Origin: Flavobacteriales bacterium
GTDB taxonomy: Bacteria > Bacteroidota > Bacteroidia > Flavobacteriales_F > PHOS-HE28
Length of the DNA stretch: 64,000 bases
Assembly: GCA_019638115.1 (NCBI GenBank)
Contig: JAHBUK010000001.1
Location: 416,287 to 480,286 of the forward strand
Direction of reading: 5' to 3'
Made by a program: the position numbers and the translations under genes. The stretch's first letter is position 1. Every line of letters starts with the position of its first letter. Under the pieces are notes generated by a model that did not search any database, had not been told where the DNA came from, and saw only the letters and a list, made by a program, of their open reading frames with translations. Below are positions 17,064 through 46,936 of this stretch, one piece after another.

Positions 17064-18028
17064 ATGTCATCCGGACAGCGCCACCGCCTTTTGCGTTGGC
17101 TACCCACGCCGCAGACCGCGAATGAACATGCCCGCACGAATTACGTGCGCGCCAAACGCCTTCGGCACTTGCGGATCAACCTGCGCCGTGGGTTGAAGGA
17201 TGCGCTTTTCTCCTTGCTGGGGGTGTTCTCCGCAGCCTTCGCACTGGAGGGTTTCCTTTTGCCCAACGGCTTCCTGGACGGTGGTGCCACGGGCATCGCC
17301 CTGCTGGTGAACCGCTTCGTGGCGATCGAGTTCGCGGCGATCCTCATCATGATCAACATCCCCTTTCTGCTGATCGCCTACAAGCTCATAGGCCGTGCCT
17401 TTGCGCTGCGGGCAACCGGGTCCATTGTGGCCCTGGCATTGATCACCTGGCAGGTGGACTTTCCGGAAGTGACGCACGACAAGCTGCTGGTGGCGGCATT
17501 CGGCGGTTTCTTCATGGGTGCCGGCATCGGCCTCGCGGTACGTGGCGGCAGTGTGCTGGATGGCACCGAGGTGCTCGGCTTGGCGCTGGGGCGACGTATC
17601 GGCATCACCATCGGCGATGTGGTGCTGCTGATCAACGTGTTGATCTTCACCGTGGCCGCCTGGCTGATCGATGTGGAGACCGCGCTCTACGCCATGATCA
17701 CCTTCCTCGCCGCCAGCAAGACCATGGACCTGGTGATCGAAGGCATCGAGGAGTACAGCGGCATCACCATCATAAGTCCGCACCACGAGGACATCCGCCA
17801 CATGATCGCCAATACCATGGGACGCGGACTCACGGTATACAACGGCAAGCGCGGTTTCACCAAGGGTGCCGGTGCCAACGATGTGGACATCCTGTACTGC
17901 GTGTTGACCCGCCTGGAGGTGAGCCGCTTCCTCTCAGAGGTGCAGAAGATCGACCTAATGCTTTTGTGATCATGAGTCCGGTGAAGGATGTGAAGGGCGG
18001 CATCATGCGCAAGCGCAGGGCGCATTGA
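17064..18028 (+). CDS. YitT/DUF161-DUF2179 family membrane protein (1 nt frameshift at ~17955)
   Basis: FLLPNGFLDGGATGI, GGSVLDGTE, IEGIEEY motifs. Adding one base at ~17955 gives ...IDxNAFVIMSPVKDVKGGIMRKRRAH-stop at 18028, matching the intact copy at 24311-24499. Confidence 0.85.
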
Positions 18029-18050
18029 GGTCGTTCGCCTCCCTCCGCAC

Positions 18051-20837
18051 CTATGGCACCTGCTCCACCCTAACCGCCGTGGGCACACTGCCACCGATAG
18101 TCTGCAGGATCACATCGCGGTCATTGTCCGCACCCACGTATTTGATCGTGCCGTCCAGGTTGACATCCTCGGTGGCGTAGGTGCCCTGCACCACGTTCAC
18201 AGGGTTGGCGCCACCGATGGCCTGTAGCACCGCATCACGGTCGTTGTCGGCCCCGGTGTATTTCACCTGTCCGTCGAAGTTCACGTCCCCAGGCCAGAGC
18301 ACGCTCACACCGCCCACCTCGTTCACTGGTGCATTGCCATGGATGAATGCCGGCGGGTATACCGTGAAGTCGAAGGATGTGACCAGACCAGTGCCTGCAT
18401 CGTGTGTTTCCTGCTCATAGTAGGTGCGCACCCCGAGGTGGTTGCGGTGGTGTACCGAGACCATGAACCATGCGCCAGTGGCGGGGATAAGCACGGGCGA
18501 TAGGCCGTCGGTGTCCACCACCTGGCCATCGCGACGCAGCAGCGCGGCCCGTGCGTGATAAATGATCGATGCATCAATGATGTCCCGCAGTTCCAGCACC
18601 ACCCAGTCCACGATCGCGCCGGGACCTTCAACCGCCAGCACGTCCGCATGCACCGTTTCGCCACCACCGCCTTCGGGAAAGTTGTAGCCCAGGGCGGTGT
18701 ACGGTTCCTGCATGGGCAGCAAGCTATGTACACGCAGGTCGTCATGCATCAGACCCGTGTCTGCATCGTATGGACCACCCAGGAACACGCGTACGTCGAG
18801 CAGGACCGCTTCAGGTGGTATCGGCACCGAAAGCACACAGGGGTCGGTGATGATCGGTGGGTTGAAGTCGAAGTAGATGCCGGCCAGGTTCTCCACCTCA
18901 TCGCCAGGCTCGGTCATGAAACCATCACGCATTCGAATGCGGAAGGAGACCAGGCCATGGCTGAGTGCTTCGTTCACATTGCTGTCCGGGAGCATGATGC
19001 CCGGGAAGGCGAACTTGAGGATCCCGGCCCCCTTGATCATCCAAACGAAATTGTGCGAGGCGCCGAGGACATCGAGGCTCGCCGGATCCAATTGCGGCGG
19101 CAGTGTATCGATGATCAACACGTTGAAGGCAGTGTCCGTGCCGGTGTTCTGGAAACGGATCGTGTAATCGACCCACTGGTCCTCGCCGGGGATCCACGAG
19201 GTGTCGTTGCCACTGCTGGTGCGGGCCAATTTATCGTTGGGGTCATAGGCGCCGGTTATCACCCGGTCCACCGATGCGCTATTGTTGCTCAGATCACCGT
19301 CCTCATTGGTCGTTTCGGCCACCGCCGATACGGTGACCGTACTGCCCAGCAAGCCCACATCGGGCGGTACCTGAAAGTCCACCACGAACGATGCCTGACC
19401 GTACGGGGCTAGTGAAGGTAGCTGCCAGGTGAGGGTGTTGCCCTGGACGCTGGACCCATTCATAGGTTCGGCGGACAAGAACTCAAGGACCTCATCGAAC
19501 TCCACGCTCAGGGTCCAGTCCCCGGTGGGCAATGGCCCCAGGTTCTCAGTGAAGAACCTCACCCTGTAAGGAAAACCCGGCCGGGCGCTGCCTCTCGTCA
19601 TACCCAACCTCAGGTCCATGGGCACAGTTGCTTGCGAGGGGAAGTTGAAGTTTTCCACCCCAGGGACGCCCGTGATGGTGAAGGTGACCGGGTCGGCACC
19701 GCATATTGCCTGCGCTTGGGGATGGGACATGGTGGCCGTGTAGGTGCCCGTTGCAAGTACTAACGGTGAAGTGTACCCGCCACCTGTATTGGTGTAAACG
19801 GGGCCGGGCAACACCTCGATCACCGCATTGCGCAATGATGTTTCACCGCCATTGAACAAGCAATTCTCATTCGCATCAAGCCATGCCCTGCCCCTGGCCC
19901 TTCCGCAGGTTCCTCCTGCAGAGGGCACCTCCACAAGCACCGAATCGCCGATCACATGTGCGCCGGATTGGATCCTGACCCACCAGGACCCCGTAGGCAC
20001 CTGCTCTATGGTGCCCATCCCGCCGGGAGAAAGCCATACGCCAGTAGTCAACCAGTTACCGCCCGAAGCGTTCCTGCGTCGTAACTCCCCACCAGAAGCA
20101 GGCCAGGGACCAGGCACGGTAGCCCCTGCTGCCACGGTGACACGGCCGGTGGGCGCATTGGAACACGAACCTTCCACATCCACCAACTGGATCGCAGGGA
20201 GCACGGTGGGATTGCCGATCGCGAGGGTCATATTCACGTTCCCACCACATCCATTGAAGCCACTCGCATTGAGCACCGTGCCGGGAGACACATTGTCTAT
20301 TCGCCAGTTGCCAGAGCAAGTACTGGGAGTGCCAGAAGGACACGGTCCGGAGAGCCACGTGTATCCCGGGCCGTCGAACCATATATCGTAGGTCTCGGTC
20401 ATGTATACTGTACCATGTATTTGACCACCCGGAGAATAGGGGTAGTGCTGTGCATAGAATTCCATTTCTCCCGGATAACCGATCACATAGGGCTGTGCAT
20501 CATCCCATTTCACCAGTCCATCCCCGTTCGTTACCGACGCACTTGCTCCATTCATCCAATTCCCACCGAACAAATTATGGCTCCGGTACATCTGGTATTC
20601 TTCGTCGTTGTTGGCAATGTTCGGTGGCAGGGCATCCCATTGGATCATGATGGGGTAGATGGGGTTGTACACCGTAAGCCAGTACGACGAGACCCCTTCA
20701 TCGTAGCAAGTAATAGTAGGTGAGACTACCGTCACATTAAAATCCCCTTGTGCCCAAGCGCGCTCAGCGTGGCTGAACAGGAAGAGGCATGACACCATGG
20801 TCAGTAGAACATTACGCATGTGTTCCATGAGGTTCAT
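18051..20837 (-). CDS. Secreted protein with DUF11-like and DUF7619-like Ig domains plus dockerin-like C-terminal module (gene A)
   Basis: Signal peptide; DGDLSNNSAS; GAYDPNDK...YTIRFQNTGTDTA...IYFDFNPPI; C-terminal HRNHLG...GDVNFDGQVKYTG...RVEQVP. Confidence 0.8.
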   Translation of the reverse strand: MNLMEHMRNVLLTMVSCLFLFSHAERAWAQGDFNVTVVSPTITCYDEGVSSYWLTVYNPIYPIMIQWDALPPNIANNDEEYQMYRSHNLFGGNWMNGASASVTNGDGLVKWDDAQPYVIGYPGEMEFYAQHYPYSPGGQIHGTVYMTETYDIWFDGPGYTWLSGPCPSGTPSTCSGNWRIDNVSPGTVLNASGFNGCGGNVNMTLAIGNPTVLPAIQLVDVEGSCSNAPTGRVTVAAGATVPGPWPASGGELRRRNASGGNWLTTGVWLSPGGMGTIEQVPTGSWWVRIQSGAHVIGDSVLVEVPSAGGTCGRARGRAWLDANENCLFNGGETSLRNAVIEVLPGPVYTNTGGGYTSPLVLATGTYTATMSHPQAQAICGADPVTFTITGVPGVENFNFPSQATVPMDLRLGMTRGSARPGFPYRVRFFTENLGPLPTGDWTLSVEFDEVLEFLSAEPMNGSSVQGNTLTWQLPSLAPYGQASFVVDFQVPPDVGLLGSTVTVSAVAETTNEDGDLSNNSASVDRVITGAYDPNDKLARTSSGNDTSWIPGEDQWVDYTIRFQNTGTDTAFNVLIIDTLPPQLDPASLDVLGASHNFVWMIKGAGILKFAFPGIMLPDSNVNEALSHGLVSFRIRMRDGFMTEPGDEVENLAGIYFDFNPPIITDPCVLSVPIPPEAVLLDVRVFLGGPYDADTGLMHDDLRVHSLLPMQEPYTALGYNFPEGGGGETVHADVLAVEGPGAIVDWVVLELRDIIDASIIYHARAALLRRDGQVVDTDGLSPVLIPATGAWFMVSVHHRNHLGVRTYYEQETHDAGTGLVTSFDFTVYPPAFIHGNAPVNEVGGVSVLWPGDVNFDGQVKYTGADNDRDAVLQAIGGANPVNVVQGTYATEDVNLDGTIKYVGADNDRDVILQTIGGSVPTAVRVEQVP

Positions 20838-20972
20838 GTTTCAACGCAACTCCAGGTAGCGCAAATGTGTGCTTTGCGCAAGGGCCGGCCCCTCTCGCGT
20901 ATCCCGGATCATACCATCAAGACGGTATCTCTCCATGATAGTTGCCGCAGCGAACATACATCCGCAGCTCGA

Positions 20973-21239: not shown

Positions 21240-23735
21240 CTACTGCTTCACCACCCTCACCACCCCGCTGCCCTGCGCGTTCCACACCCGCAGCAGGTAC
21301 AGGCCCGCTGGCTTTGTGGTCAGGTCCAGCACGCTGAGCGCACCAACCGCCCGCTGCTCCAACACACGCCGGCCCGCCGCATCGTACACCACCATCCAGG
21401 TGCCACCCGCTTCCGCACCACGCAACAGCACCTGATACTGCCCGCTGCCCGGGTTGGGGAACACCTGCACACCAAGCACGGGCACCTCCGCCACACCGGT
21501 GGTGGTGGCGAACAGGTTCTGCGTGGTGTTGGTCACGATCGCCTCGTTGAAATCGAAGAAGATGTGCGCCGTGTTCTCGATCAACGTGCCCACCGGCAAG
21601 CCAGGCAACGGTTTGATCCGGTACTGCACGTAGCCGATGCTTCCCTCCGGGTCGCTGGTGCTGTCCGGCAGCATGATGTTGTTGAAGCGGAAGGTGAGCA
21701 AGCTGCCACTGAGGTAGGTGAGCACAGGATGGCTGTAGCCAGTGACCATGAAGGAGTTCAGGTCGAGGTTGCTGTCCAGTGTATCGGCGATGCGGATGTT
21801 GAAGGCCGGGGCGTTGCCCGTGTTCTGGAAGAATATAGTGTAGGTGAAGGGGTCCACGTAGCCCGGCGGCACATCCACCGGCCACACACGCTTCACATTG
21901 GGGTCGTACGAGTTCACCACATCGTAGCAATAGGTGAGCGAATTGTTGCCGGGGTTGATGTCCCCTGCCATCGGGGCAACGGTAACTGTTACGCACACCG
22001 TATCGCCAGCGGCGGCCGTACTGTCGGCACGCATCACCAGGCGGAAGTCCTGCTGGTTGTTCACCGTGGCGAAATCGGGGATGGTGTAGGTGAACTGCAT
22101 GGCCCCCGTGATCGTGGGCGTGAGGGCACCTGGTGCGGGTTGCAGATATTCAACCGGCCCGTCCACATCCACGGTCACCGTGCCCCCGATCCCGGCGGCA
22201 CACTGAAGACCGTACGCGCTGATCAGGTCACCGGCGATGATGTGCAGCGTATGGGTCTGGAAGGGGAATACCCAGCCTGTGGCCGCCACCGATGCCACGC
22301 CCACATCAAAACCGGGCTGGCAAGTCACGCCGAAGTCCACACCTGCCCCAGTTGGATCGGCAGCACTGAGCACCACCTCCTGCGCATCACCCGGCATCGT
22401 ACACGAGGGCATGTATGCCATGTCCGCCGTTACCAGCAGCACAGTGTATTCACCCGCTTCGGCAACAAAGTGGTAGTGCCCATCCGCCTGCGAGGTGGTC
22501 ATGGCAAGCAGTTCACCCTGAGCATCGAGCAGTTTCAGGGATACACCCACAAGGCCGGGTTCACCTGCGTCCTGCATGCAGTTGCCGTTCACATCGTCGA
22601 ACACCTTACCCACGATGCCAGCGAACCCAGTGCATCCATAGGGGTTGTTGTCCAGGTCGGTGAGGTCGCAGATCGGGAAGTCCAACCAATAGGCACTCGG
22701 GCCGCTCATGGCCGGTACGGTGTTGGGCAGGCAGGTGAAGGGGTTATCGGAGATATTGAATGTAACCACCCAGCTGCTGACCAGACTGTTGGGCAACGTG
22801 GGCAAACAGGTGAGCAAGTTGTTCTGGCAGGTCAGGCCCAGTAGACCCTCGGGCAACTGCGGCAACGTAACGAGCGCGTTGGAAGCACACAACAAGTACT
22901 GGAGACCGTCCGGCAACGGTGGCAATGCGGTGAGCCCGTTGCCGCCACACCCGAGCAATACCAGGGAGGCTGGCAGGGTAGGTAAAGCTGCGAGCGGGTT
23001 GTTATCGCAACCTAGCTCTGTCAGCGCGGCAGGCAGGGATGGCAACGCGGTGAGCGCATTGTCCATGCAATTCAGCAGGGTGAGCGCAGCAGGCAGTGCG
23101 GGCAGGGAAGTGAGTTCGTTCACGTCGCACATCAGGATCGACATGTTGGCGGGAAGCGAGGGCAGCGCGGCGAGGGCGTTGGCCCCGCAGTCGAGTTCGA
23201 GCAATGCGCCAGGCAGGGCGGGCAAGGCCACCAGGCTATTGCCTCTACAGGACAGCACGGCCAGCGAGGCAGGCAACACCGGCAATTCAGCAAGTGAGTT
23301 GAAGCTGGCCTCCAACCAGGTCAACGTGGGCGGAAGTGCGGGCAGCGCCTCCAACATGTTCGCTGCGCAGATCAATGTGGTCAGACCCGGTGGCAGGGTG
23401 GGCAACTCGGAGAGCATGTTGAGACCACAATCCAGGTAGGTCAATGTCGCAGGCATCTCGGGCATTTCCATCAGGAAGTTGTCCGCGCAGTAAAGACTGT
23501 CCAGGTTTACGAAGTATTCGATCCCCGTGAGGTCGGTGATCCCTGCGGAGATCAGGTCAAGCATCGTCGCAGTGATCACCTCCGGACAACTGGTATCCAG
23601 TAGCTCCTCGTTCATGCAATCCGGGAACAGCTCGATGAGCCGACCCGCGAAAAAAGGATCGGGGATCGTTACCCATTGTGCCGAAGCGGTGAGGTGGAGA
23701 CCCATGAGCAGGGCCAGTAGCGTAGTGTGCTTCAT
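21240..23735 (-). CDS. Secreted leucine-rich repeat protein with SdrD-B-like and DUF7619-like domains and T9SS CTD (gene B)
   Basis: IPDPFF N-cap; ~20 aa LxxLPxLPxxLxxLxCxxN repeats; GKVFDDVNGNC; SYDPNVK...FQNTG...FDFN; VFPNPG...GLYLLRV...VRVVKQ. Confidence 0.85.
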   Translation of the reverse strand: MKHTTLLALLMGLHLTASAQWVTIPDPFFAGRLIELFPDCMNEELLDTSCPEVITATMLDLISAGITDLTGIEYFVNLDSLYCADNFLMEMPEMPATLTYLDCGLNMLSELPTLPPGLTTLICAANMLEALPALPPTLTWLEASFNSLAELPVLPASLAVLSCRGNSLVALPALPGALLELDCGANALAALPSLPANMSILMCDVNELTSLPALPAALTLLNCMDNALTALPSLPAALTELGCDNNPLAALPTLPASLVLLGCGGNGLTALPPLPDGLQYLLCASNALVTLPQLPEGLLGLTCQNNLLTCLPTLPNSLVSSWVVTFNISDNPFTCLPNTVPAMSGPSAYWLDFPICDLTDLDNNPYGCTGFAGIVGKVFDDVNGNCMQDAGEPGLVGVSLKLLDAQGELLAMTTSQADGHYHFVAEAGEYTVLLVTADMAYMPSCTMPGDAQEVVLSAADPTGAGVDFGVTCQPGFDVGVASVAATGWVFPFQTHTLHIIAGDLISAYGLQCAAGIGGTVTVDVDGPVEYLQPAPGALTPTITGAMQFTYTIPDFATVNNQQDFRLVMRADSTAAAGDTVCVTVTVAPMAGDINPGNNSLTYCYDVVNSYDPNVKRVWPVDVPPGYVDPFTYTIFFQNTGNAPAFNIRIADTLDSNLDLNSFMVTGYSHPVLTYLSGSLLTFRFNNIMLPDSTSDPEGSIGYVQYRIKPLPGLPVGTLIENTAHIFFDFNEAIVTNTTQNLFATTTGVAEVPVLGVQVFPNPGSGQYQVLLRGAEAGGTWMVVYDAAGRRVLEQRAVGALSVLDLTTKPAGLYLLRVWNAQGSGVVRVVKQ

Positions 23736-23864
23736 GCTGGTGGGGCTGGTGGCCTTACCGGTGATCCGCGGCGGGGCTTCGATAGGTGAAGGTATGCTGG
23801 ATAGACGTGCCGATCCCGCAGCTGTTGCCCGCCCTAAACCTCCTCACGGTCCCGGCCTTCCCCC

Positions 23865-24317
23865 CTACTGCTTCACCACCCGTACCACCCCGCTACCCTG
23901 CGCGTTCCATACCCGCAGCAGGTACACGCCCGCTGGCTGTGCGGTCAGATCAAGCATGCTGAGCGCACCTGCCGCCCGCTGCTCCAGCACTCGCCGGCTG
24001 GCCGCATCGTACACCTCCATCCAGGTGGCACCCGCCTCCGCACCACGCAACAGTACCTGGTACTGCCCGCTGCCCGGGTTGGGGAATACCTGCACACCAA
24101 GCACGGACACCTCCGCCACACCCGTGGTGGTGGTGAACAGGTTCTGCGTGGTGTTGGTCACGATCGCCTCGTTGAAGTCGAAGAAGATGTGCGCCGTGTT
24201 CTCGATCAGCGTGCCCACCTCCAGGCCAGCCAGCGGCTTGATCCGGTACTGCACAAAGCCGATGCTTCCTTCGGGATCCCTGGTGCTGACCTGCAGCAAG
24301 ATGTTGTCGAAACGGCA
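23865..24317 (-). pseudogene. Truncated 3' part of a gene-B paralog (B')
   Basis: Aligns without gaps to 21240-21692 (offset 2625). Retains the DUF7619 tail and T9SS CTD but is cut at the yitT-fragment junction. Confidence 0.9.
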
Positions 24318-24515: not shown

Positions 24516-27500
24516 CTATGGCATCTGCTCTACCCGAACCGCTGTAGGCACCGTGCCACCTATGGTTTGCAGGATCACGTCGCGATCGTTGGCTGCACCT
24601 GTGTACTTCACCTGGCCATCCAAATTGACATCGGCGTCGTAGTAGCCGTACACAATGTCCGTCGGTATGGCACCGCCAATAGCCTGGAGCATCAGGTCAC
24701 GGTCATTATCATTACCTGTGTACTTCACCTGCCCATCGTGGTTGACGTCGGCCGGCCAGAGCAACATCGTCCCGTTCACGTTTTTCTGGGCGCTTGTTCC
24801 AAAGGTCGCCGTGGCCGGGTTGGTGAAGTCGACCATGGTCGCACCCGATGTAAGCGCGATGGGTGCTGCGGTCATCACACCCAAGTGGTTGCGGTGACGG
24901 ATGGCTATATGGTATTCACCGGGTTCGATCGTGAAAAAGACCGCGCTGTTACCATCGCTGCCTACCACATCGCCATCACGTTGCAACAGCGCACTGCGTG
25001 TAGCAAGTATCGGATACAGGGGAGCACCACCGCGCAATTCGACCAACACCCAATCAACTATCGCATTGACCCCGCTCGTTCCGAAGACGGACGGCTGCAC
25101 GGTCTCACTTCCCCCACCTCCAGCCTGTGCGAAGCCCATGGCCGAATAAGGTTCCGTGCCGGGTATAACACCAAGTACGCGCAATACATCGGTCATCAGC
25201 GGAGTCGCGTAGGGTCCCGAGAGCATGACCCTCGCTGCTACACCGACTTGTAACGGATCGGAGATGAGGTACGCCGAACCTGAATTGCTCATCGGGTTCA
25301 TCCCGTAAATGTCGTGATCCTCATCCCTGGCACCCACGATCGCACGGCCTCCATCGATCGAAACCGAATAACCGAACCGGTCGCCTTCTTCCCGGTCACC
25401 TGCAACGATCTTCCCCTTCTGTGACCATGAGGTACCATTGCGTTCGAACAAATAAGCGGCCCCGGCATATTCGAGCGGATCGTTCCCGAGTATATCATGA
25501 CGATCGTTTATTGCGCCCACCAAGGCACGATCACCACTGATCGAAACGGACCAGCCGAACCAAGCACTGACCTGTCTATCGGCTGGGACTATCTTCTGCT
25601 GTTGGATCCATTGCCCACCCGTGTTCTTGAAAATGTAGGCCGATCCCGCATTGTAGGTGGAGCCGCCCCCGTTCTCATCACGTGCATCATATAAAGCACC
25701 GACAATGGCGTGATCCCCATCAATGGCGCCGCTCCAACCAAAGTAGGCCCCTGGTGTACGATCACTGGCCACGAGCTTCTGTTGCTGGTCCCACACATCG
25801 CCATTGCGTTGGAAGATATACGCAGAGCCGGCGTTCAGCAGGGTATTGTCCCCGTTCTCATCCTCATCCTCACCCAAGGTACCCACGAAGGCGTGGGCGC
25901 CGCTGATGGATACCCCTACACCGAAGCTATCGGTTTCACCACGATCACTGGCCACAAGCTTCGCCTGCTGTGCCCAAGTACTGCCGGTGCGCTTGAAGAT
26001 GTATGCTGCACCCGCATTGGTGATCATATTCCCTCCCTGTTCATCGAGGCTATTGCCATGTGCACTCACGATCACATATTCACCGCTGATCGCTACAAAA
26101 TTCCCGAATTGATCTCCGGGGTTCCGGTCCGAGGCTACGATCTTCTGCTGCTCGACCCAAACCCCATCGGTACGCTTGAAAATGTACGCGGAACCAGCCA
26201 TCATGACGGTCGTGCCGCCCCAGCCGACGCCGTGTCCGTCAGTTTTTGCACCGACCACGGCGTAATCACCGTCAATGGCCACCCCAACCCCGAATTCGTC
26301 ACCTGCGGTCCGATCGCTGGCCACGATCTTCTGCTGTTGGACCCACTCGGTCCCGGTCCAATGAAAAATATAGGCTCCACCTGCATTGTTCACTGGGGAT
26401 CCTCCCACGGCATTCCCATCCGTAGACCGAGCACCAACAATGGCGTAGTCACCACTGATGGCCACGCTGACCCCGAAATTATCCATACTTGACCTGTCAA
26501 GAGCGACCACCTTGTCCACCACCATAGGAGTGACCGGTGGACCCACACAATTACACGTGTAATTCCAGTGGTCCGGACCAGTATTCGGGTTGCCATCATC
26601 GCAGGGGGTTCCCGGTTGGCAAGTGGGTGTGGAGAAGGTGATCGATGCGCTGAAAGCGGAACTACCCCCGAGACATACGGATCCCACCCTGAATTCATAG
26701 GATGTACCTGCGACCAATCCGGTCAATAGTAGGCTTGTGTCCGCTATCGCAGTGATCGCATTCCAAGTACTGGACATTGAGGGCTTCCATTCCAGATCAT
26801 AGGTGTCGGCCCCGGCCACTGCAGACCATACCAGTGTGGCACCAGTCCCAGAAACATCCAAGGACATCAACCCGTGAGGGTCCCCACAGCCGGCACATGA
26901 ATTCAAGCAGGGTGCCATATTTACGTTATTGAGAATAACGGCAGTAGGTTGGGGACCGAACCCGTTACTGAAGTTTATACCAGTATCCGTCCAGCGGTGA
27001 CAGTAGCTCATAATAGTACCACCGTTCGGCGGCATGGGACCCTGCTGGCAGCTACCTTCGGTATTGAAGCATCCATCAATGGCAGTATTGTTCCCGTTCC
27101 ATGCGCAAGCATGTGTATGGCGAGAACCCATCAAGTGTCCCTCCTCGTGGGTGACGACCATTATGCTCCAACTATAGGTAGGCAGCGGTTGATATGACCA
27201 ACTCACTCCACTGTAGCACATGCTCGAACTTGGAACTGCATTACAGAGGCCTGCCAATCCGCTGGCCACGCCCCCCCCACACCCGTAACCGATCAAATGG
27301 GCCAGATCACCATTGAACGAAGTACGATAGCCCCGGAACTGGGTGAGTAGCCCGGATGCGTTCACGGCTGTGTAGGGGCTGGGGATATCCCAGATGAACA
27401 GCTGGGACAGCCGCACGGAGACCCCATCATTGGCGAACAAGACCGCATGTAGATTGAACAGGCCTGTGATATAATTCGATGTTGCATTGATACCACCCTT

Positions 27501-28190
27501 GTGCTGAAAGACATCATGGTCCACCTCCCAATAAAGGTCGACACACCTAAGGCTCCTTGCCCCTTCTTGAAGCACCAGGTCATCAGGGGCATATGAGCCA
27601 TCATCTTCGGGTGTTTCACAGCTTATCACCGGCACATCGAACATATCCCGCTCAGCATAATAGACATGCTCACCACTCCCGTCCCCGAATTTGCCCAGCA
27701 CATGATTCCCTCGTTGGTCGCTTACGAAGCCCATCACTTCATCCTCGAAGATGCTGATCGCCGCAAGTGTATTTGGATCACCGTCAATGACACCTTGGTA
27801 ATGCAATCCGGGGGCATGCGCTATTGCTCGACCGGAACTAGCGACCGTCATGGAGAAATCATCAGAGAAGATGTGGACACGTGTCAGAAGGAGGTCCACC
27901 GCACCTCCGGTCGCAGGTATCACGAGGACCACGTTTGACGGCCGTTCTCTGATCACGTCGAGCAGCGTAGGGATATGAACTTGGAACAGGGAGGCATGTT
28001 CCACAATTGCATTTACGGCATGGTCACGCACCACTTGGACGGGTTCTGCCAAGAAGGGCTCCACTCTCTTGAACGGTGTGCGCTTCTCTTCCAAGTGCGC
28101 GATCAGTTCCGCCACGCGTCCACTAGCACGCTCCTGTCCAATGGCACATTGCCACAACAATGCGGCTGCAAATACAATGGATGCTTTCAT
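24516..28190 (-). CDS. Secreted M12/reprolysin-like zinc metalloprotease with FN3, FG-GAP repeats and dockerin-like C-terminal module (gene C)
   Basis: HEEGHLMGSRH zinc motif with Met-turn TIMSY; FN3 LxAGTSYEFRV; about seven FGxxVxIxGDxAxVGA repeats; HRNHLGVMT...RVEQMP. Confidence 0.88.
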   Translation of the reverse strand: MKASIVFAAALLWQCAIGQERASGRVAELIAHLEEKRTPFKRVEPFLAEPVQVVRDHAVNAIVEHASLFQVHIPTLLDVIRERPSNVVLVIPATGGAVDLLLTRVHIFSDDFSMTVASSGRAIAHAPGLHYQGVIDGDPNTLAAISIFEDEVMGFVSDQRGNHVLGKFGDGSGEHVYYAERDMFDVPVISCETPEDDGSYAPDDLVLQEGARSLRCVDLYWEVDHDVFQHKGGINATSNYITGLFNLHAVLFANDGVSVRLSQLFIWDIPSPYTAVNASGLLTQFRGYRTSFNGDLAHLIGYGCGGGVASGLAGLCNAVPSSSMCYSGVSWSYQPLPTYSWSIMVVTHEEGHLMGSRHTHACAWNGNNTAIDGCFNTEGSCQQGPMPPNGGTIMSYCHRWTDTGINFSNGFGPQPTAVILNNVNMAPCLNSCAGCGDPHGLMSLDVSGTGATLVWSAVAGADTYDLEWKPSMSSTWNAITAIADTSLLLTGLVAGTSYEFRVGSVCLGGSSAFSASITFSTPTCQPGTPCDDGNPNTGPDHWNYTCNCVGPPVTPMVVDKVVALDRSSMDNFGVSVAISGDYAIVGARSTDGNAVGGSPVNNAGGAYIFHWTGTEWVQQQKIVASDRTAGDEFGVGVAIDGDYAVVGAKTDGHGVGWGGTTVMMAGSAYIFKRTDGVWVEQQKIVASDRNPGDQFGNFVAISGEYVIVSAHGNSLDEQGGNMITNAGAAYIFKRTGSTWAQQAKLVASDRGETDSFGVGVSISGAHAFVGTLGEDEDENGDNTLLNAGSAYIFQRNGDVWDQQQKLVASDRTPGAYFGWSGAIDGDHAIVGALYDARDENGGGSTYNAGSAYIFKNTGGQWIQQQKIVPADRQVSAWFGWSVSISGDRALVGAINDRHDILGNDPLEYAGAAYLFERNGTSWSQKGKIVAGDREEGDRFGYSVSIDGGRAIVGARDEDHDIYGMNPMSNSGSAYLISDPLQVGVAARVMLSGPYATPLMTDVLRVLGVIPGTEPYSAMGFAQAGGGGSETVQPSVFGTSGVNAIVDWVLVELRGGAPLYPILATRSALLQRDGDVVGSDGNSAVFFTIEPGEYHIAIRHRNHLGVMTAAPIALTSGATMVDFTNPATATFGTSAQKNVNGTMLLWPADVNHDGQVKYTGNDNDRDLMLQAIGGAIPTDIVYGYYDADVNLDGQVKYTGAANDRDVILQTIGGTVPTAVRVEQMP

Positions 28191-39070: not shown

Positions 39071-39163
39071 GGGTTGTTGAGGAGTTGAGAAGTTGCAAGT
39101 TGGTAGTTGTGCCAACGCCTTCAACTCCTCAACCTCTCAACTCCTCAACCTCTCAACTTCCCC
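39071..39163. repeat. Inverted repeat of 8 bp tandem units
   Basis: GTTGAGGAGTTGAGAAGTTG on the left, (TCAACTCCTCAACCTC)x2 TCAAC on the right; same unit as inside rsgA. Confidence 0.85.
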
Positions 39164-39164
39164 A

Positions 39165-40040
39165 ATGACCGCATACGTTTTCCCCGGACAAGGCAGCCAG
39201 TTCCCCGGCATGGGCAAGGACCTGTATGATGCCGACAGCAACGCGCGCATCTGGTTCGAGCACGCCAACGACATCCTGGGCTTCAACCTCACCAACGTGA
39301 TGTTCACGGGCAGCGAGGCCGACCTGAAGCAAACGAACGTTACCCAGCCCGCGATCTTCCTGCACAGCGTGGTGAAGGCCAAAGTGCTGGGCGATGCGTT
39401 CCAACCCGCCATGGTGGCCGGGCACAGCCTGGGCGAGTTCAGCGCACTGGTGGCCGCCGGTGCCATGGAGTTCGCCGATGGTTTGAAACTGGTGGCCGCG
39501 CGTGCCAATGCTATGCAGAAGGCCTGCGAACTGCAGCCGAGCACCATGGCCGCGATCCTGGGCCTGGAGGACGAGAAGGTGGAAGAGGTCTGCAAGACCA
39601 TCCCCGGTGTGGTCGTGCCCGCCAATTACAACTGCCCTGGCCAATTGGTTATCAGTGGCAGCGTGGAGTCCGTGAACGCCGCCTGCGAGGCCTTGAAGGC
39701 CGCCGGAGCCAAGCGCGCACTGGTGCTGCAGGTGGGCGGCGCCTTCCACAGCCCACTGATGGAGCCCGCCCGCGTGGAACTGGAAACGGCCATCGCCTTC
39801 ACCCCCATCGTGAACCCGCGCTGCCCCGTTTACCAGAACGTGGATGCCCGCCCGCACACCGATCCCGCCCGCATCAAGGCCAACCTGATCGCGCAACTCA
39901 CCGCACCTGTACGCTGGACCCAGACCATGCAGCACATGCTGGCCGATGGCTGCAGCAAGGTGGTTGAAGTGGGCCCCGGCAATGTGTTGCAGGGGCTGTT
40001 CAAGAAGGTGAATAGGGAGTTGGAGACGGCGGCCGGATGA
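39165..40040 (+). CDS. fabD: Malonyl CoA-ACP transacylase
   Basis: FPGQGSQ, TQPAI, AGHSLGE, ANYNCPGQLVISG, GAFHSPLM, EVGPG. Confidence 0.97.
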   Translation: MTAYVFPGQGSQFPGMGKDLYDADSNARIWFEHANDILGFNLTNVMFTGSEADLKQTNVTQPAIFLHSVVKAKVLGDAFQPAMVAGHSLGEFSALVAAGAMEFADGLKLVAARANAMQKACELQPSTMAAILGLEDEKVEEVCKTIPGVVVPANYNCPGQLVISGSVESVNAACEALKAAGAKRALVLQVGGAFHSPLMEPARVELETAIAFTPIVNPRCPVYQNVDARPHTDPARIKANLIAQLTAPVRWTQTMQHMLADGCSKVVEVGPGNVLQGLFKKVNRELETAAG

Positions 40041-40067
40041 AGGTACCATGCGTATATTCGCATTTAC

Positions 40068-41616
40068 ATGATGCGCCGTGGATTGATTTTTTTAGCGCTT
40101 TGGAGCATACCCCTGCTTGAAGCTGCAGCCCAGGGCTTAGGTAACGAGAACAACCGGCGATATGCTTTTGGCCAGCATCTTGGCAACGACTTCACGACCG
40201 AACTAGAGTACTTCAAGGACGAAGCCTACTTGATGGTAGCTCGCATAGATACAGGCGTGGGTAGCAATCGACGCACTTGGATCGGCCTATCTGTGCTTGA
40301 TATATCTCTGGACAAGATATCCGAAAGGAGACTGGATCACCCGGTGAACTTTTTCAGCATCAACACCTCTCATGGGAACCATACATCAAGAGTGAGCGAT
40401 GGTTACCTCGTGTTAACCAGTGTTTATGACAGCACTAGTTTGCTCTCAGGCTACCTTTTCAAACTCAATGAGCAACTTGACACGATCTGGACAAGGTTAT
40501 ACAGCGACGGCCAAGCCAGCTTCACGGCGCAAGAACTGTTACCAATGAGCGATGGTTTCAGTTTGGTCGGCACAACCTTCAGCACTCCATCAAAGGGGAT
40601 GGTTTACCGCTTGGATAATGCTGGAAATGAACAATGGTCAGCGACCGTTGGCTCTCCCGAATACAGCTACTCAATCCATGGTGGAGTACGCACCTCCGAT
40701 GACGGAATGGTACTCGTTGGCAACCGTCGTTCAAGTAATAACGTCAAGCGTGCCATTGCAATAAGACTGTCTTCAACAGGAGAAGTTATCTGGGAACAAC
40801 CCTATACCGCATTCAGCCATGGAGATGTATTCCAAAGCATCATAGCATTATCATCGGGGGGCTTTGTCATGGTTGGAGCGTCCGACACGATCCCCGGATG
40901 GGTCGACCGGTTAAAACAGTACGTAGTTCGGATCAACGAAGCAGGTGATACGCTCTGGACCAAGCTCATTGATGAACCGGCTTCGAACAATCGGTGCCTT
41001 TGGGACCTGATCGAGCTACCTGACGGGAACCTGATCGCTGTCGGAATGATCGATCTGGAGACTTCCTTTTCCTGGAAGGGTTCCGTTACCAAGCTGAGCA
41101 GTGATGGTGAGGTGCTCTGGCACAATTGGTATCAATACACGGATAGTACGGCATCGGCTAGTAATGGCTGGCTTATGGAGGTGATGCTCGACCGCGATCC
41201 GAATTACATCCTTTGCGCAGGCACTCTGTATCCCGTTCCGTTCAGCGATCCGGTTGACTTCGACGTGGATAGTTGGTTGATCCGCCTGGATATGGATGGA
41301 TGCCTGGTGCCCGGATGTAACCTTGTAACGGGCATCAACACCCAGTATGTAGGCATGGGTGAAGCCTTAAGGTTGCAACCCAGCTACGCGTTACACGACA
41401 CTGCACATCGGCTTGCCAAGCCAGATGAACCTCTGCGACCCACTCCTACTTACTATCCTTAGTAGTGATGGCAAGCGCATTCATGAACAAGTCTTGCCTG
41501 ATCGAATGGAACATGCTTTGGAGATCGACTTGCTCCATTACACAAGTGGACTTTATTACGTCCATCTTTCCAGCGGATCCGCTTGGCTGGCAGGGGTGAA
41601 ACTTATGGTCGAATAG
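40068..41616 (+). pseudogene. Secreted T9SS protein with repeated xW(T/E/S)xx beta-propeller-like units; frameshift before the CTD
   Basis: Signal peptide; DTIWTR/DTLWTK-type repeats; DMDGCLVPGC linker. The CTD (SGLYYVHL...VKLMVE) lies in another frame (41413-41616). Visibly lower GC than the flanks. Confidence 0.7.
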
Positions 41617-41647
41617 TCAAAGTATGAACGCCGACCGCCCACCCGAA

Positions 41648-42027: not shown

Positions 42028-42095
42028 GACCGGTATTGTTAGCCGTTCCAGTTCACTAAGACTGTTGAAGGTCGCGCAAAGCGGACTCACAGCAT

Positions 42096-42395
42096 TCACC
42101 CCTTCATGGCCTTCGGATCCCGCCGTGAATCGAAGATGTCGGTGACTATGATCCGTTCCGGGGTGATGCGATAGATGATCTTGAACGGCCCAACGATAAC
42201 CCGACGGTGTTGCAGACCGAGCACTTCAAGATCGGGTTCCAATTGACCACTGTACGCGTTGCCCTTCAGCCATTCCAACTTATCAGCAACCTGCCCCTGA
42301 AGCTCTCTGATGTAGCTGATGGAATGGGTTCTGGCCAACAAACGAAGCGTTCGCCGTTTGCTCTCGTTGGCCTGCGCTAATACGATCAGCTTCAC
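42096..42395 (-). CDS. Type II TA toxin, RelE/ParE family
   Basis: 99 aa; GQLEP...HRRVIVGPFKIIYRI...IVTDIFDSRRDP; overlaps the upstream antitoxin. Confidence 0.8.
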   Translation of the reverse strand: MKLIVLAQANESKRRTLRLLARTHSISYIRELQGQVADKLEWLKGNAYSGQLEPDLEVLGLQHRRVIVGPFKIIYRITPERIIVTDIFDSRRDPKAMKG

Positions 42396-42643
42396 GCGCG
42401 ACGTTTGGTCTTCGGCTTCTTCGCGTACAAGCTCTCGATGAACTCATCCATGTCCTTGTTGAACTCCTCCAAGGTCTGAAAACGCCCTGCCTTCAGGTCC
42501 TCTTCAGCCTTCAACGCCCGCTTTACCATGGCACTTTGCCGCACTGGCTTCTCAAGGACCTTGGCCACCCTTTCCAACACGGCTGGGTCCTTCACCGAAT
42601 CGATGAGCTTCTTTAAATGGGCTTTGCGTTGCGGGATGGTCAT
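42392..42643 (-). CDS. Putative antitoxin
   Basis: 83 aa directly upstream of the toxin; AEEDLKAGR motif; TATCTTTG promoter box at 42660-42667. Confidence 0.7.
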   Translation of the reverse strand: MTIPQRKAHLKKLIDSVKDPAVLERVAKVLEKPVRQSAMVKRALKAEEDLKAGRFQTLEEFNKDMDEFIESLYAKKPKTKRRA

Positions 42644-42731
42644 GCTCCTTTCTTGAACCCAAAGATAACCAGCGCACTATCCCGAAGGGTGCTCCGCGAG
42701 CCGTGTTGCTCCCGAACTTCGCGGCCGATCC

Positions 42732-43958: not shown

Positions 43959-43966
43959 TGGGCTAA

Positions 43967-44221
43967 TTACTGAGCGCTAACAGCCTGTTCCGGCAAGGCT
44001 TCCATGAACTGCTCCATCTCGCGATCGAATTCATCCATAGTCTTGTACGTGCCCGCTTTGAGCTGCTCCTCGGATCGAAGCACCCTTTGGACCAGATCAC
44101 TCTGAAAAGCAACATCCCTTGTCTTCCTCTGCAGGACATTATCCACCAGATCAAGCACCGCAGCATCCTGCTCGGCCTCGATCAACTTCTTCAACAAAGC
44201 TTTCTTCGTCGCGGTGGTCAT
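43967..44221 (-). CDS. Orphan antitoxin-like protein, paralog of 42392-42643
   Basis: KxxLKKLI...DxAVL...(S/A)EExLKAG...T(M/L)(D/E)EF...M(E/D)xF shared with the antitoxin; TAGCTTTG box at 44237-44244. Confidence 0.65.
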   Translation of the reverse strand: MTTATKKALLKKLIEAEQDAAVLDLVDNVLQRKTRDVAFQSDLVQRVLRSEEQLKAGTYKTMDEFDREMEQFMEALPEQAVSAQ

Positions 44222-44263
44222 GTCGTCAGCTTTGCCCAAAGCTAGTGCGGACCGCAGGCACTT

Positions 44264-45013
44264 TCACAAGCCGGAGTTCAACAGCTTTCCACTCCCTATC
44301 AGCTTGTGCAGGTAGGGCCGCGTGAGCGTGTTGTGGATGGCCTGCACGTGGTTCATGTTGTGGCAATCGCTGCCAAGCAACTCGTAGTAGCCGGCATCGA
44401 TCATGCGTTCGGCCACCTGCTTGGCCTGGGGGCCATAGGCTCCTGAAAGGGCCACGAGGTTGAGTTGGAAGAGGACACCGCGTTCCTTCAGTTCAGTGAA
44501 CTTGTTGAAGTCGTTGTACCAGAAGGTGTAGCGTTCCGGATGCGCCAGCACGGGGCGGTAGCCTTGGGTCTGCATCTGGAACACCACGTGTTTCAACATG
44601 GCCGGCTCACCGATGAATGGCAGCTCGAACAGCAGCAGTTTGTTGCCGAACGTGAGCACGGTGCCTGCGTTCACCTGTTCTTCCAATGCGTGGTCCAGGT
44701 AGTACTCGGCAGCGGCCTCCACGGTGATGTCCAGGCCCTGGCGCTGCACCTCGGCGCGCACCTTCTCCAAGCCACCCAGGATCATCTCCGGGCTGTTCTT
44801 GTAGCCATCGGCCATGCTGTGCGGGGTGGTGATCACCTTGCGGTAGCCAAGGTCGTGCATGGCCTTGAGCAGCTCCATGGTCTGCTCCAAGGTCTGCGCA
44901 CCGTCGTCGATGCCGGGGATGAAGTGTGAGTGCACATCGCAGCGCAGCACGCTGAGATCCGCCGGGCCCAACACCGGCTCGCTCTTGCCGAACAGCTTGC
45001 CGAAAAGTCCCAT
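44264..45013 (-). CDS. CpsB/YwqE family tyrosine-protein phosphatase (PHP)
   Basis: DVHSHFIPGIDDGA, ITTPH, AAEYY, LAHPERY, GSDCH. Confidence 0.92.
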   Translation of the reverse strand: MGLFGKLFGKSEPVLGPADLSVLRCDVHSHFIPGIDDGAQTLEQTMELLKAMHDLGYRKVITTPHSMADGYKNSPEMILGGLEKVRAEVQRQGLDITVEAAAEYYLDHALEEQVNAGTVLTFGNKLLLFELPFIGEPAMLKHVVFQMQTQGYRPVLAHPERYTFWYNDFNKFTELKERGVLFQLNLVALSGAYGPQAKQVAERMIDAGYYELLGSDCHNMNHVQAIHNTLTRPYLHKLIGSGKLLNSGL

Positions 45014-46152
45014 CAGTTCTGGGTGTAGTGCTCCTTGTAGTACTGCTGATAGGCGCCGCTGGTCACATGGTCCAGCCACTCGGTGTTGGCCAGGTACCAG
45101 TCCACGGTGCGCTCCAGGCCCACCTCGAAGGTGATGCTCGGCTTCCACCCCAGCTCGCGCTCGATCTTGCCGGCATCGATGGCGTAGCGCAGGTCGTGCC
45201 CGGCGCGGTCGGTGACGTAAGTGATCAGCTTCGCGCTCTCGCCTTCAGCACGACCAAGCTTCTTGTCCATGATGGAACAGAGCAGGTGTACCAGGTCGAT
45301 GTTCTTCCACTCGTTGTGTCCGCCGATGTTGTAGGTCTCGCCGTTCCTGCCGGTGTGGAAAATGGTGTCGATGGCGGCGGCGTGGTCCTCCACCCACAGC
45401 CAGTCGCGCACGTTCTCGCCCTTGCCGTACACAGGCAGCGGCTTGTTGTTGCGGATGTTGTTGACCATGAGCGGGATCAACTTCTCGGGGAAGTGGTGGC
45501 TGCCATAGTTGTTGCTGCAGTTGCTCACCACGAAGGGCAGCTTGTAGGTGTTGCCGTAGGCGCGCACGAAGTGATCGCTCGCGGCCTTGCTGGCGCTGTA
45601 GGGGCTCTGCGGATCGTAGGGCGTGGTCTCCAGGAAGAGGCTGTCGTCGTGCAGCGAGCCGTAGACCTCGTCGGTGGAAACGTGGTAGAAACGCACCCCA
45701 CCCCCGCCCTCCCCCGGGGGGAGGGAGGAATGCGCCTCACCCCCGGCCCCTCTCCCGGGGAGAGGGGAGGAACTCACTCCAAGTTGCGCTTTCCATGCTG
45801 CTTTCGCAGCGTTGAGCAGGGTGACGGTTCCGAAGACGTTGGTGCGCACGAAAGACAACGGATCGGTGATGCTGCGGTCCACATGGCTTTCGGCTGCGAG
45901 GTGGATGACGCCATCGATGTTGTGCTCCTTGAACACCTCGGCAACGGCATCGGCATCGCAGATGTCGGCCTTCACGAAGGTGTAGTTGGGTGCGTTCTCG
46001 ATATCGCGCAGGTTCTCCAGGTTACCCGCATAGGTAAGCGCATCGAGGTTGATGATGCGGTACTGCGGGTACTTGGTAACGAAGCGGCGCACCACGTGGC
46101 TGCCGATGAAACCGGCACCGCCGGTGATGAGGATGGATCTTGCGTTGGACAT
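45013..46152 (-). CDS. rfbB: dTDP-glucose 4,6-dehydratase (with in-frame palindromic insertion)
   Basis: ITGGAGFIGS, DALTYAGNLENL, HLAAESHVDRSI, HVSTDEVYG, SPYSASKA, NCSNNYG, FPEKLIP. Confidence 0.96.
   Translation of the reverse strand: MSNARSILITGGAGFIGSHVVRRFVTKYPQYRIINLDALTYAGNLENLRDIENAPNYTFVKADICDADAVAEVFKEHNIDGVIHLAAESHVDRSITDPLSFVRTNVFGTVTLLNAAKAAWKAQLGVSSSPLPGRGAGGEAHSSLPPGEGGGGVRFYHVSTDEVYGSLHDDSLFLETTPYDPQSPYSASKAASDHFVRAYGNTYKLPFVVSNCSNNYGSHHFPEKLIPLMVNNIRNNKPLPVYGKGENVRDWLWVEDHAAAIDTIFHTGRNGETYNIGGHNEWKNIDLVHLLCSIMDKKLGRAEGESAKLITYVTDRAGHDLRYAIDAGKIERELGWKPSITFEVGLERTVDWYLANTEWLDHVTSGAYQQYYKEHYTQN
45697..45772. repeat. Two tandem GC-rich hairpins in-frame inside rfbB
   Basis: CCCTCCC..GGGAGGG (45707-45725) and CCCCTCTCC..GGAGAGGGG (45747-45767); peptide SPLPGRGAGGEAHSSLPPGEGGGG. 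Confidence 0.8.
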
Positions 46153-46188
46153 ACGGGCACAAAGATGCGGCGAAGAGGGGCCAGGGTA

Positions 46189-46551
46189 TCAGATGTCGAT
46201 CACGGATAGCCTGCCCTTATCGACTTCAAGCAGGAAGCGTGGTCTTTCGTTCAAGCTGGCGATGTGTTCCATGTTATCGAACAGGATCGCCGAAAGTTCC
46301 TTGTGCGGTATGTTCCCAAGGTTCACCTTGATGAGCTTGCGCGGCGTTCCTTGTACGATAGCGCTATCCCGGAAGTCCGTGTCCTTCGTGATCAGGATAC
46401 GATCCTCTCGGTCGGCCAAGTGGGCGATGTCCTTGTCCGAAGTGTGCCTCTTCGCTGGAAGCTGGTTCACGTGCATACTCTCACGACCCGCCTTCGCCAA
46501 GCGCTTGGATAAAGCTATCGGGATATGAACGTCGCACAGGAAGCGCATCAC
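46189..46551 (-). CDS. DUF5615 PIN-like toxin
   Basis: MRFLCDVHIP...SDKDI...REDRILITKDTDF. Confidence 0.85.
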   Translation of the reverse strand: MMRFLCDVHIPIALSKRLAKAGRESMHVNQLPAKRHTSDKDIAHLADREDRILITKDTDFRDSAIVQGTPRKLIKVNLGNIPHKELSAILFDNMEHIASLNERPRFLLEVDKGRLSVIDI

Positions 46552-46781
46552 GCCACATCACCCAATGAATGGCCCGAGACCATGAGCTTGGCGTAGTTCA
46601 GGCTCGCTTGGATGTCATCCTTTTCAAGTTCGGGATGCTCAGAGAGGATCTCCTCAGCGGACATCCCCGAGCCAAGCATGTCGATGATCACCTCCACCGG
46701 CCAGCGCATGCCCCGGATGCAGGGCTTGCCATGGCAGATGGCGGGGTCGATGGTGATACGGCCGAGATGGGAGCGTTCCAT
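46548..46781 (-). CDS. DUF433 family antitoxin
   Basis: RITIDPAICHGKPCIRGMR...EEILSEHPELEKDDIQASLNYA; start at ATG 46781. Confidence 0.9.
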   Translation of the reverse strand: MERSHLGRITIDPAICHGKPCIRGMRWPVEVIIDMLGSGMSAEEILSEHPELEKDDIQASLNYAKLMVSGHSLGDVA

Positions 46782-46839
46782 GGTAGCGTAAAGATAGAGC
46801 ACTGAGCGACCTAGTACATGGATCGGCATTGCCTTATGC

Positions 46840-46936
46840 ACGAAACGATGCACCACGTGGCTGCAGATGCAACCGGCACCGCCGGTGATGAGCATGGACC
46901 CAATGTGGGTGAACCAGCGTCAAAGATGCAGGGAAG
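46840..46936 (-). repeat. Duplicated 5' end plus promoter of rfbB (direct repeat of 46079-46175)
   Basis: 97 bp ungapped alignment (offset 761), including the CATCTTTG box; encodes LITGGAGCICSHVVHRFV. Confidence 0.88.

Follow-up and report, generated by a model that had tools for sequence, protein, structure and literature searches.

Gene-end duplications in the window

The stretch analysed here (the window) is a 64,000-nt segment of a Flavobacteriales metagenome-assembled genome (MAG; GenBank assembly GCA_019638115.1, contig JAHBUK010000001.1; G000:C1:416287-480286 in our numbering), and it contains three accessory islets located at the ends of the housekeeping genes yitT, fabD, and rfbB. 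In each of these, a truncated second copy of the gene terminus lies beyond 0.66-6.3 kb of accessory DNA. A first-pass annotation made from the sequence had drawn attention to the three repeat pairs, and alignment confirmed all of them. The repeats are 97-190 nt long, above the >30 bp criterion of Furuta et al. (2010), and in all three pairs homology sets in abruptly within the gene and ends either with the stop codon or 23 nt upstream of the start. Housekeeping genes in this region have a third-codon-position G+C content (GC3) of 0.82-0.90.

The yitT-family membrane protein gene (16797..17969, plus strand; Pfam YitT_membrane, 2.5e-54, with a truncated DUF2179; the true start is probably further in) carries the attached copy of the first repeat (copy A) at 17841-18031, and the displaced copy (copy B) is found on the same strand at 24311-24502. 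Alignment of the two gives 88-90% identity with one 1-nt indel, and 16 synonymous versus 3 non-synonymous codon differences; by BLASTN, a homology of 78% carries on into the convergent neighbour's 3' end (17841-18301 versus 24311-24763). The cargo, encoded on the minus strand, comprises a 928-aa secreted-type protein with DUF11 and DUF7619 (18051..20837, GC3 0.70), an 831-aa LRR protein (21240..23735) in which a profile search identified a type A sorting domain of the type IX secretion system (T9SS), and, cut off where it meets the displaced yitT end, a second copy of the last 452 nt of the 831-aa gene (23864..24315, 90% identical). Within this cargo the T9SS sorting domain is confined to the 831-aa gene and its 144-aa fragment. 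At the border itself (24311..24315), the 831-like gene and yitT are joined non-homologously, each at an internal point, with a microhomology of ~3-5 nt. The gene had been described as intact, which holds for the frame of the displaced copy, open through to the stop codon, but is not borne out by the attached copy, where a 1-nt deletion near 17956 relative to the displaced copy ends the open reading frame (ORF) at 17969. This ORF closes (17950-17969) with ...QKIDLMLL*, 59 nt early and lacking the last 24 residues of DUF2179; the frameshift is either a real truncation or an assembly or sequencing error. Beyond the displaced end lie genes for a 1224-aa FG-GAP/reprolysin protein and a 480-aa protein (24516..29629, minus strand), within the hypervariable interval between yitT and a sigma-54 regulator gene.

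At fabD (acyl carrier protein S-malonyltransferase; 39093..40040, plus strand; TIGR00128, 320 bits), the attached 3' end (39856-40040) and the displaced end (41628-41812, plus strand) are 86% identical in an ungapped alignment, and BLASTN aligns 170 nt of them at 89.4% (E 3e-55). The cargo is a single 464-aa beta-propeller-like protein (40068..41462, plus strand; GC3 0.56) with weak beta-propeller matches; it had been labelled T9SS cargo, a designation that we drop, as it has no detectable T9SS sorting domain. A ParE-type toxin-antitoxin pair (42096..42643, minus strand), variably present among relatives, is located between the displaced end and an MFS gene.

The third gene, rfbB (dTDP-glucose 4,6-dehydratase; 45013..46152, minus strand; TIGR01181, 469 bits), is duplicated at its 5' end together with 23 nt of upstream sequence: the attached copy at 46079-46175 and the displaced copy at 46840-46936 (minus strand) agree at 75/97 positions (77%). 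Between them lies a toxin-antitoxin cassette (46189..46895, minus strand) consisting of a DUF5615/PIN-like gene (46189-46551) and a DUF433 ORF (46548-46895, likely true start ~46781). The displaced 5' end with its upstream box has decayed, with a broken GxxGxxG motif and 1 synonymous versus 9 non-synonymous differences, and it is fused in frame to the DUF433 ORF. Compared with the rfbB 5' ends of relatives, the attached copy is 87.5-96% identical and the displaced copy 84-88% over 53-59 nt (E 1e-12 to 1e-15). Within rfbB itself, positions 45695-45790 hold an in-frame insertion (~95 nt) belonging to a short repeat element found in many copies here and in related genomes; the insertion is replaced by 36 other letters in a close relative and is missing in other species.

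Sequence data and survey methods

The genome (G000) originates from a bioreactor metagenome and comprises 4.06 Mb in 9 contigs with 60% G+C; the contig holding the window (C1) measures 1.15 Mb. Protein families were assigned by a Pfam scan of 29 ORFs within 13.3-48.7 kb of the window. The whole genome was screened for further islets by self-BLASTN (word size 11, cut-off E 1e-8) with crude gene calls from a GC3-based ORF picker, an islet being scored wherever a gene of >=150 aa has a truncated repeat of one of its termini directly outside it. The rfbB pair fell below the cut-off. Frequency controls were two genomes of the same genus (G009, G016) and one of another family (G038, 47% G+C), and they were run through the same pipeline as samples cut in 20-kb pieces, with distinct host gene termini counted. 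For an independent check of the assembly, k-mer contigs of four public sequencing runs (X1-X4) were placed on positions 38500-48000 of the window.

Alleles in relatives and in independent read sets

Empty or alternative alleles, which had been anticipated in relatives, are present at all three window loci, and each relative's locus has a single copy of the gene end (fabD 11/11, yitT 12/12, rfbB 5/5). Neither a second fabD end nor a homologue of the 464-aa cargo was found at 11 loci of the genus searched with 1.5-kb flanks; in one relative (G018) fabD is followed almost directly by the MFS gene, and in others 0.5-0.6 kb or a ParE-type pair separates the two. A close relative (~95-96% identical) represented by a 12.6-kb contig of run X4 has just 106 other letters between fabD (40033) and the MFS gene (42788) and lacks the fabD islet. 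At rfbB, four genomes (G048, G009, G020, G021) have ~5-150 nt between the gene and an upstream sugar-dehydrogenase gene, with a single 5' copy each, and a fifth (G051) has a single 5' copy with other cargo at the site. The X4 relative (~95% identical here) is colinear across the whole rfbB islet (45791-48000); this islet predates the split of the two, consistent with its decay (77% identity, 1 versus 9 differences, broken motif). The yitT locus displays alternative cargos only, with no strictly empty allele in 12 relatives: the interval to the sigma-54 regulator gene, calculated by subtraction of match coordinates, ranges from ~1.5 to 16 kb and contains paralogous secreted-protein genes.

Joining of co-existing strain haplotypes in tandem during assembly would also place a related strain's allele next to its counterpart, and the MAG origin of the genome, the resemblance of the displaced ends to alleles of a related strain, and the abundance of islets relative to two comparably contiguous MAGs of the same genus would all agree with it; the yitT islet and all others beyond 38.5-48 kb lie outside the read check. 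The fabD islet, however, is not an assembly chimera, because contigs of three independent studies carry its junctions with 0 differences. In X1, the probable source run, one contig (39982-41767) runs from the fabD end across the entire cargo into the displaced end; a contig of X2, from another study, covers 39982-41486; and a contig of X3, from a third, covers 41502-41789 and crosses the joint between cargo and displaced end. Depth in X1 is 79.6 over the cargo, equal to that of its flanks (83-90). In addition, the X4 relative carries the rfbB islet, the same architecture recurs in assemblies of at least seven other species, and overlapping reads could not produce a joint that links two genes at internal points. 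We therefore regard an artefact as extremely improbable. A scan of metagenome contigs for the exact 57-nt joint between fabD cargo and displaced end gave 0 matches.

Frequency and composition of islets across the genome

A self-BLASTN count, suggested by the first-pass annotation, identified 32 further candidate islets, 22 at 3' ends and 10 at 5' ends (including C2:16463 and C2:21030), which is a lower bound as the filter missed the yitT and rfbB pairs. Their repeats have a median length of 122 nt and a median identity of 90%, and the cargo, with a median of 1.2 kb, consists mostly of one or two genes and has a G+C content under the genome mean. Expressed as distinct host gene termini, the genome yields 10, 7, and 9 per 800 kb and 5 in 620 kb, compared to 4 per 800 kb in G009 (2 of them artefacts at piece boundaries), 1 per 800 kb in G016, and 0 per 800 kb in G038. 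The proposal that such islets characterize the lineage is thus not supported: two genomes of the same genus are far poorer (4 and 1 versus 7-10 per 800 kb), and because of these low counts the excess is specific to this genome or species rather than to the whole genus.

Other cargos in G000 include HepT with MntA, a HEPN protein, a DUF2442 protein, and a J-domain protein. A multi-copy element carrying cargo families was considered and rejected, as only 2 related pairs occur among 34 cargo proteins, most of which are single-copy.

Islets may also accumulate at one site. At C3:798482-800898, three displaced 3' ends of one 408-aa gene (83-164 nt, 92-94%) form an array with spacings of 0.6-1.3 kb. 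On C2, a convergent gene pair, A and B, is separated by two cassettes in the order A end, 1.0 kb of cargo 1, displaced B end, displaced A end, 1.7 kb of cargo 2, B end. In relatives, A and B are direct neighbours in 5 genomes and enclose other cargo in 4. A joint of this kind between the two displaced ends would result from closure of a circle, from two alleles arranged in tandem, or from an illegitimate join with one anchor.

Cassettes and arrays in other species

Across 61 genomes of the genus, the DUF433 and DUF5615/PIN-like pair at rfbB has homologues at 9 further loci; 3 are clearly bracketed by a local gene-end duplicate, 2 have weak or complex repeats, and 4 have none (one being almost flankless). 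The bracketing repeats comprise 107 nt of the 3' end of a SAM-methyltransferase gene in G005 (90% identical; 4 synonymous and 0 non-synonymous differences), 51 nt of the rsmG 3' end in G043 (96%), and ~300 nt of the 3' end of an Fe/Mn superoxide dismutase gene in G051 (5 or 6 differences counted on the alignment, ~98%). These cassettes have only the two ORFs in common, and no common ends.

A class-III aminotransferase gene (named from its translation) is the host of C3:540825 in G000, with a VapC-like PIN gene and a 74-aa partner as cargo, and its displaced 3' ends are also present in G055 (1), G021 (1), G046 (3), and G023 (4). Of the 11 displaced copies in five species, 10 end no more than 3 nt from the stop codon, the exception being that of G021, which falls ~37 nt short; the inner ends vary, and the copies accordingly measure 47-346 nt. 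The array cassettes encode RhuM-family proteins, VapBC, and a PIN protein with a DUF6364 partner. One unit, a RhuM gene with an 86-87-nt displaced aminotransferase end, has the same inner end in three species (L184 on G023:C9, L176 on G046:C120, and L183 on G055:C47) and is colinear among them at 77-84%, with host genes at 78% and different positions in the arrays; being as diverged as the host genes, such units can apparently be old and stable.

Allelic origin of the repeat copies

In the 22 3'-end islets, differences between attached and displaced copies fall on codon positions 1, 2, and 3 in the proportion 54/52/144, corresponding to 127 synonymous versus 86 non-synonymous codon differences. 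Even the 9 youngest pairs (>=92% identical) have 33 synonymous versus 19 non-synonymous differences, compared to an expected synonymous share of 24% for random single-base changes and an estimated ~40% for one copy drifting neutrally (P = 5e-4). The same bias is seen at single loci, namely 16 versus 3 at yitT, 6 versus 0 at C3:396808, and 4 versus 0 at the G005 locus. Later decay is superimposed, and stops or indels occur in 13/32 displaced copies. Because divergence is mainly synonymous even in the youngest pairs, the 3'-end copies were different functional alleles when they were joined, and most of their divergence arose while both were working genes in different genomes. The view that displaced ends derive from diverged functional alleles of relatives is thereby supported.

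This pattern bears on two explanations in which the copies originate within one genome. In a true long target-site duplication, which is how "insertion with long target duplication" would be understood literally, a cassette free of homology inserts at a staggered break close to a gene terminus, and the copies are identical at first and diverge later. The toxin-antitoxin cassette family fits such a course, being found at four gene ends in four species with local repeats of 51-304 nt and an almost constant cassette length (635-697 nt), as do the G051 repeats, which differ at 5 or 6 of ~300 positions. Repeats that are closer to each other than to the empty allele have moreover been described by Furuta et al. 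(2010), e.g. 417/423 versus 345/370 (PMC2853133). The synonymous bias of the youngest pairs, and of yitT, C3:396808, and G005, contradicts initially identical copies, and the staggers would have to span 50-500 nt, for which we know of no bacterial mechanism; we consider this course unlikely.

Alternatively, a gene end and its neighbourhood may have been duplicated in tandem in situ, with one copy of the cargo subsequently lost or replaced. Tandem paralogues do abound in the window (the 3' end of the 831-aa gene recurs after 2625 nt, and 8712-12706 hold the decayed copy of a 1193-aa gene), and the joint of displaced B and A ends on C2 has the geometry of a tandem duplication. Nevertheless, the cargo on one side bears no relation to that on the other, at least two rare steps would be needed at each of >30 loci, and synonymous-biased divergence points to copies that evolved as working genes in separate genomes, so that we give this alternative very little credence.

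A diversity-generating retroelement was rejected as a source of the mismatches, which are of all kinds and mostly synonymous rather than adenine-specific; no reverse transcriptase family was seen in the Pfam scans of the window.

Recombinases, border motifs, and competence genes

The 29 window ORFs include no integrase, transposase, or recombinase family, and the four tyrosine recombinases (PF00589) of the genome are all located off C1, in agreement with the original observation that neither integrases nor transposases lie in or beside the islets. Serine recombinases were likewise not seen in Pfam scans of the window ORFs; the genome-wide search covered PF00589 only. The lack of a shared core is supported as well, as no 8-10-mer is enriched at the 64 cargo borders of the 32 islets. 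Ku, of the non-homologous end-joining pathway, had no match in G000. A ComEC homologue is present, but it is uninformative given its presence in 10/14 control genomes.

Prophage e14 and phage 21 at icd, and the islands at tRNA and tmRNA genes, bring a replacement gene end and strand the old one as a direct repeat. The islets share this architecture of restored gene and displaced end and might be remnants of such elements, with the integrase lost or acting in trans; their arrays resemble the tandem accretion recorded at tmRNA genes (PMC3146451). Unlike those elements, which have an integrase and a fixed crossover core, the islets display neither. Four tyrosine recombinases would have to account for >30 target genes, no core or motif is common to the borders, the inner repeat ends vary between events at one gene (47-346 nt), 10 islets are at 5' ends, and the cargo is mostly one or two genes with a median of 1.2 kb. 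An origin from site-specific elements is, consequently, highly doubtful. Integrons were rejected as well: no integrase lies near the arrays, and the cassettes are separated by gene-end copies rather than by a shared element (attC-like folding was outside the comparison).

Relation to known systems

The islets are not new in kind, as their architecture matches both the insertion with long target duplication and the products of single-crossover or homology-facilitated illegitimate recombination (HFIR). Insertion with long target duplication was reportedly noted for restriction-modification genes by Nobusato et al. in 2000, and earlier HFIR studies are said to include those of de Vries and Wackernagel (2002) and Prudhomme et al. 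(2002). Novelty of the route is thus not supported, since Furuta, Abe and Kobayashi (2010; PMC2853133) described, under the former name, restriction-modification genes flanked by long direct repeats that are single-copy in the genome with an empty site. In common with those, the islets are small selfish or accessory units without a mobility gene, have an empty site in relatives, and are flanked by variable direct repeats of >30 bp (theirs of up to ~420 bp), often at the 3' end of a gene (PMC2853133). They differ from the cases treated there in three respects: (i) the cargo comprises toxin-antitoxin, RhuM-family, secreted, singleton, and beta-propeller proteins rather than restriction-modification genes; (ii) they occur in a Flavobacteriales MAG at >30 per 4 Mb, with arrays of up to 4 displaced ends; and (iii) the copies differ mostly synonymously, which marks them as separate alleles and not a fresh duplication.

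Laboratory counterparts are available from E. coli, where a non-replicating plasmid with a lacZ end gave a duplication by PCR in 56/60 recombinants, the 14 that were sequenced being single-crossover duplications of 109-950 bp, and where HFIR occurred at 3e-10 (Amarir-Bouhram et al. 2011; PMC3240628). As in those Campbell-type and HFIR products, one homologous exchange and one non-homologous joint would suffice here with no element enzyme, and the duplicated gene ends (47-517 nt) are of comparable size to the 109-950 bp of the laboratory events. The latter involve engineered plasmids or transforming DNA (PMC3240628), and one of the joints in the islets is blunt and not microhomologous. Orphan 3' ends and immunity arrays at Rhs, CDI, and T6SS effector loci, for which HFIR has been proposed (Kirchberger et al. 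2017; PMC5361080), offer a natural parallel, in that successive displacement leaves strings of truncated 3' ends with downstream genes and alleles from other strains. At the loci described there, displacement affects a single polymorphic toxin gene, in its variable toxic tip; here the docking genes are housekeeping genes (fabD, rfbB, yitT, rsmG, superoxide dismutase, aminotransferase) whose function is unchanged (PMC5361080). The merodiploid model of PMC3784515 needs pre-existing repeats and does not fit the islets. A literature search of partial coverage returned these laboratory and restriction-modification precedents and nothing on cassette arrays at gene ends that occur genome-wide and without integrases in Bacteroidota. 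Although the type of scar is known, its frequency in this genome is unusually high.

Proposed mechanism

On balance, we think it probable that each islet was left behind as a scar by additive ("insertion-duplication") recombination with a diverged relative's DNA. The sequence of steps, the nature of the intermediate, and an involvement of RecA are inferred. The incoming piece would carry the conserved gene end along with that relative's neighbouring accessory gene or genes. One exchange would take place by homologous recombination inside the last 50-500 nt of the gene, and the other border would be a non-homologous joint, made either when the piece closes into a circle, which then integrates by a single Campbell-type crossover, or at integration itself, by HFIR of a linear piece; within this explanation we weigh the two forms about equally. 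In both cases the product would be the gene, the new cargo, a truncated second gene end, and the old neighbourhood, with no need for an element-encoded enzyme, and a gene hit repeatedly would accumulate cassettes with displaced ends between them. The structure would be more likely to survive where the repeats are short and diverged and where the cargo is a toxin-antitoxin pair. Joint microhomology, for which HFIR calls for a short stretch of 3-10 nt, amounts to 3-5 nt at yitT and 0-1 nt on C2, where a second parent is identifiable; the other joints have no identifiable second parent.

Of the cassette-like uptake without a recombinase that had been proposed at the outset, the origin from relatives, the lack of a dedicated recombinase, and the recurrence (32 candidates, and arrays at one gene in five species) hold, whereas circular intermediates are hypothetical. 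Contigs break in a 46-nt core identical in both fabD copies, and an integrated islet gives the same k-mers as a circle plus an empty site, so that short contigs cannot separate the two; linear HFIR fits equally well.

Several observations weigh against additive recombination as set out above. No circle, excision product, or donor genome was seen among the data, the read check is confined to 38500-48000 with the yitT islet outside, and gene calls rest on the GC3-based ORF picker and not on a gene finder. Non-synonymous differences exceed synonymous ones in 16/32 islets, and the 10 5'-end islets have no third-position bias (46/29/41), for which the crude start-codon calls may be at fault. At fabD, informative sites compared to 11 (distant) relatives have derived states scattered in both copies, with no clean mosaic of donor and recipient. 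The displaced ends on C2 abut bluntly with 0-1 nt of microhomology, which is atypical for HFIR. Finally, the DUF433/DUF5615 cassette occurs at four unrelated gene ends (rfbB, SAM-methyltransferase, rsmG, and superoxide dismutase) in four species, bracketed locally each time, and is trimmed to little beyond its two ORFs, which is not obvious from random break points. Homologous docking cannot, therefore, be the whole story as first envisaged: docking alone is insufficient for the first arrival of this cassette at unrelated genes, and an extra illegitimate step must be assumed.

More tentatively, the islets could be working units of a recombinase-free, integron-like cassette system that excise as circles through host recombination between the gene-end copies and, by a tag consisting of the final 50-350 nt of a housekeeping gene, dock into that gene in any relative, a possibility that we rate clearly below the scar reading itself. 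Repeated docking would build the arrays, and toxin-antitoxin cargo would exploit the route and protect the islet from loss. A cycle of invasion, amplification, and release via the repeats was proposed for restriction-modification genes by authors who stated that release and re-infection lack experimental evidence (PMC2853133). If the integron-like interpretation is true, the synonymous-only differences in young copies would be the first footprint of the "re-infection" proposed by Kobayashi's group.

If recombination at gene ends adds rather than swaps, any housekeeping gene terminus could serve as a landing pad, and accessory genes, above all those of toxin-antitoxin and defence type, could spread among relatives without an integrase, transposase, or att site. 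Island-finding software, which seeks such features, would miss these islets. Displaced ends would also provide a dated sample of the donor or former allele, making gene flow in uncultured wastewater Flavobacteriales directly readable, and the density in this genome (>30 islets, ~2- to 10-fold above two genomes of the same genus) would offer a natural system for testing the cycle of invasion and release.

Other repeats and indels

Upstream of yitT, positions 8712-13681 contain a decayed tandem copy of the 1193-aa gene (the copy itself at 8712-12706); the 3' end of this gene and its downstream DNA are repeated 4.2 kb away (785 nt at 96%), a 395-nt 5' piece is repeated at 86%, and only small ORFs lie between the repeats. 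Between an M23 peptidase gene and a MerR gene (35427-35750), a foldback array consists of runs of 8-nt and 50-nt units mirrored by their complement. Downstream of fabD, a 90-aa ORF of no known family (43967-44239) lies within 330 nt that correspond to 27 letters in the X4 relative, and it resembles a small indel without an obvious repeat. Elsewhere in the genome, C2:87889-95971 holds four copies of a 120-140-nt intergenic repeat, 1.6-2.6 kb apart, together with two other repeat pairs; these adjoin a tyrosine recombinase gene (C2:96907-97368) and could form a recombinase-linked cassette array of a different kind.

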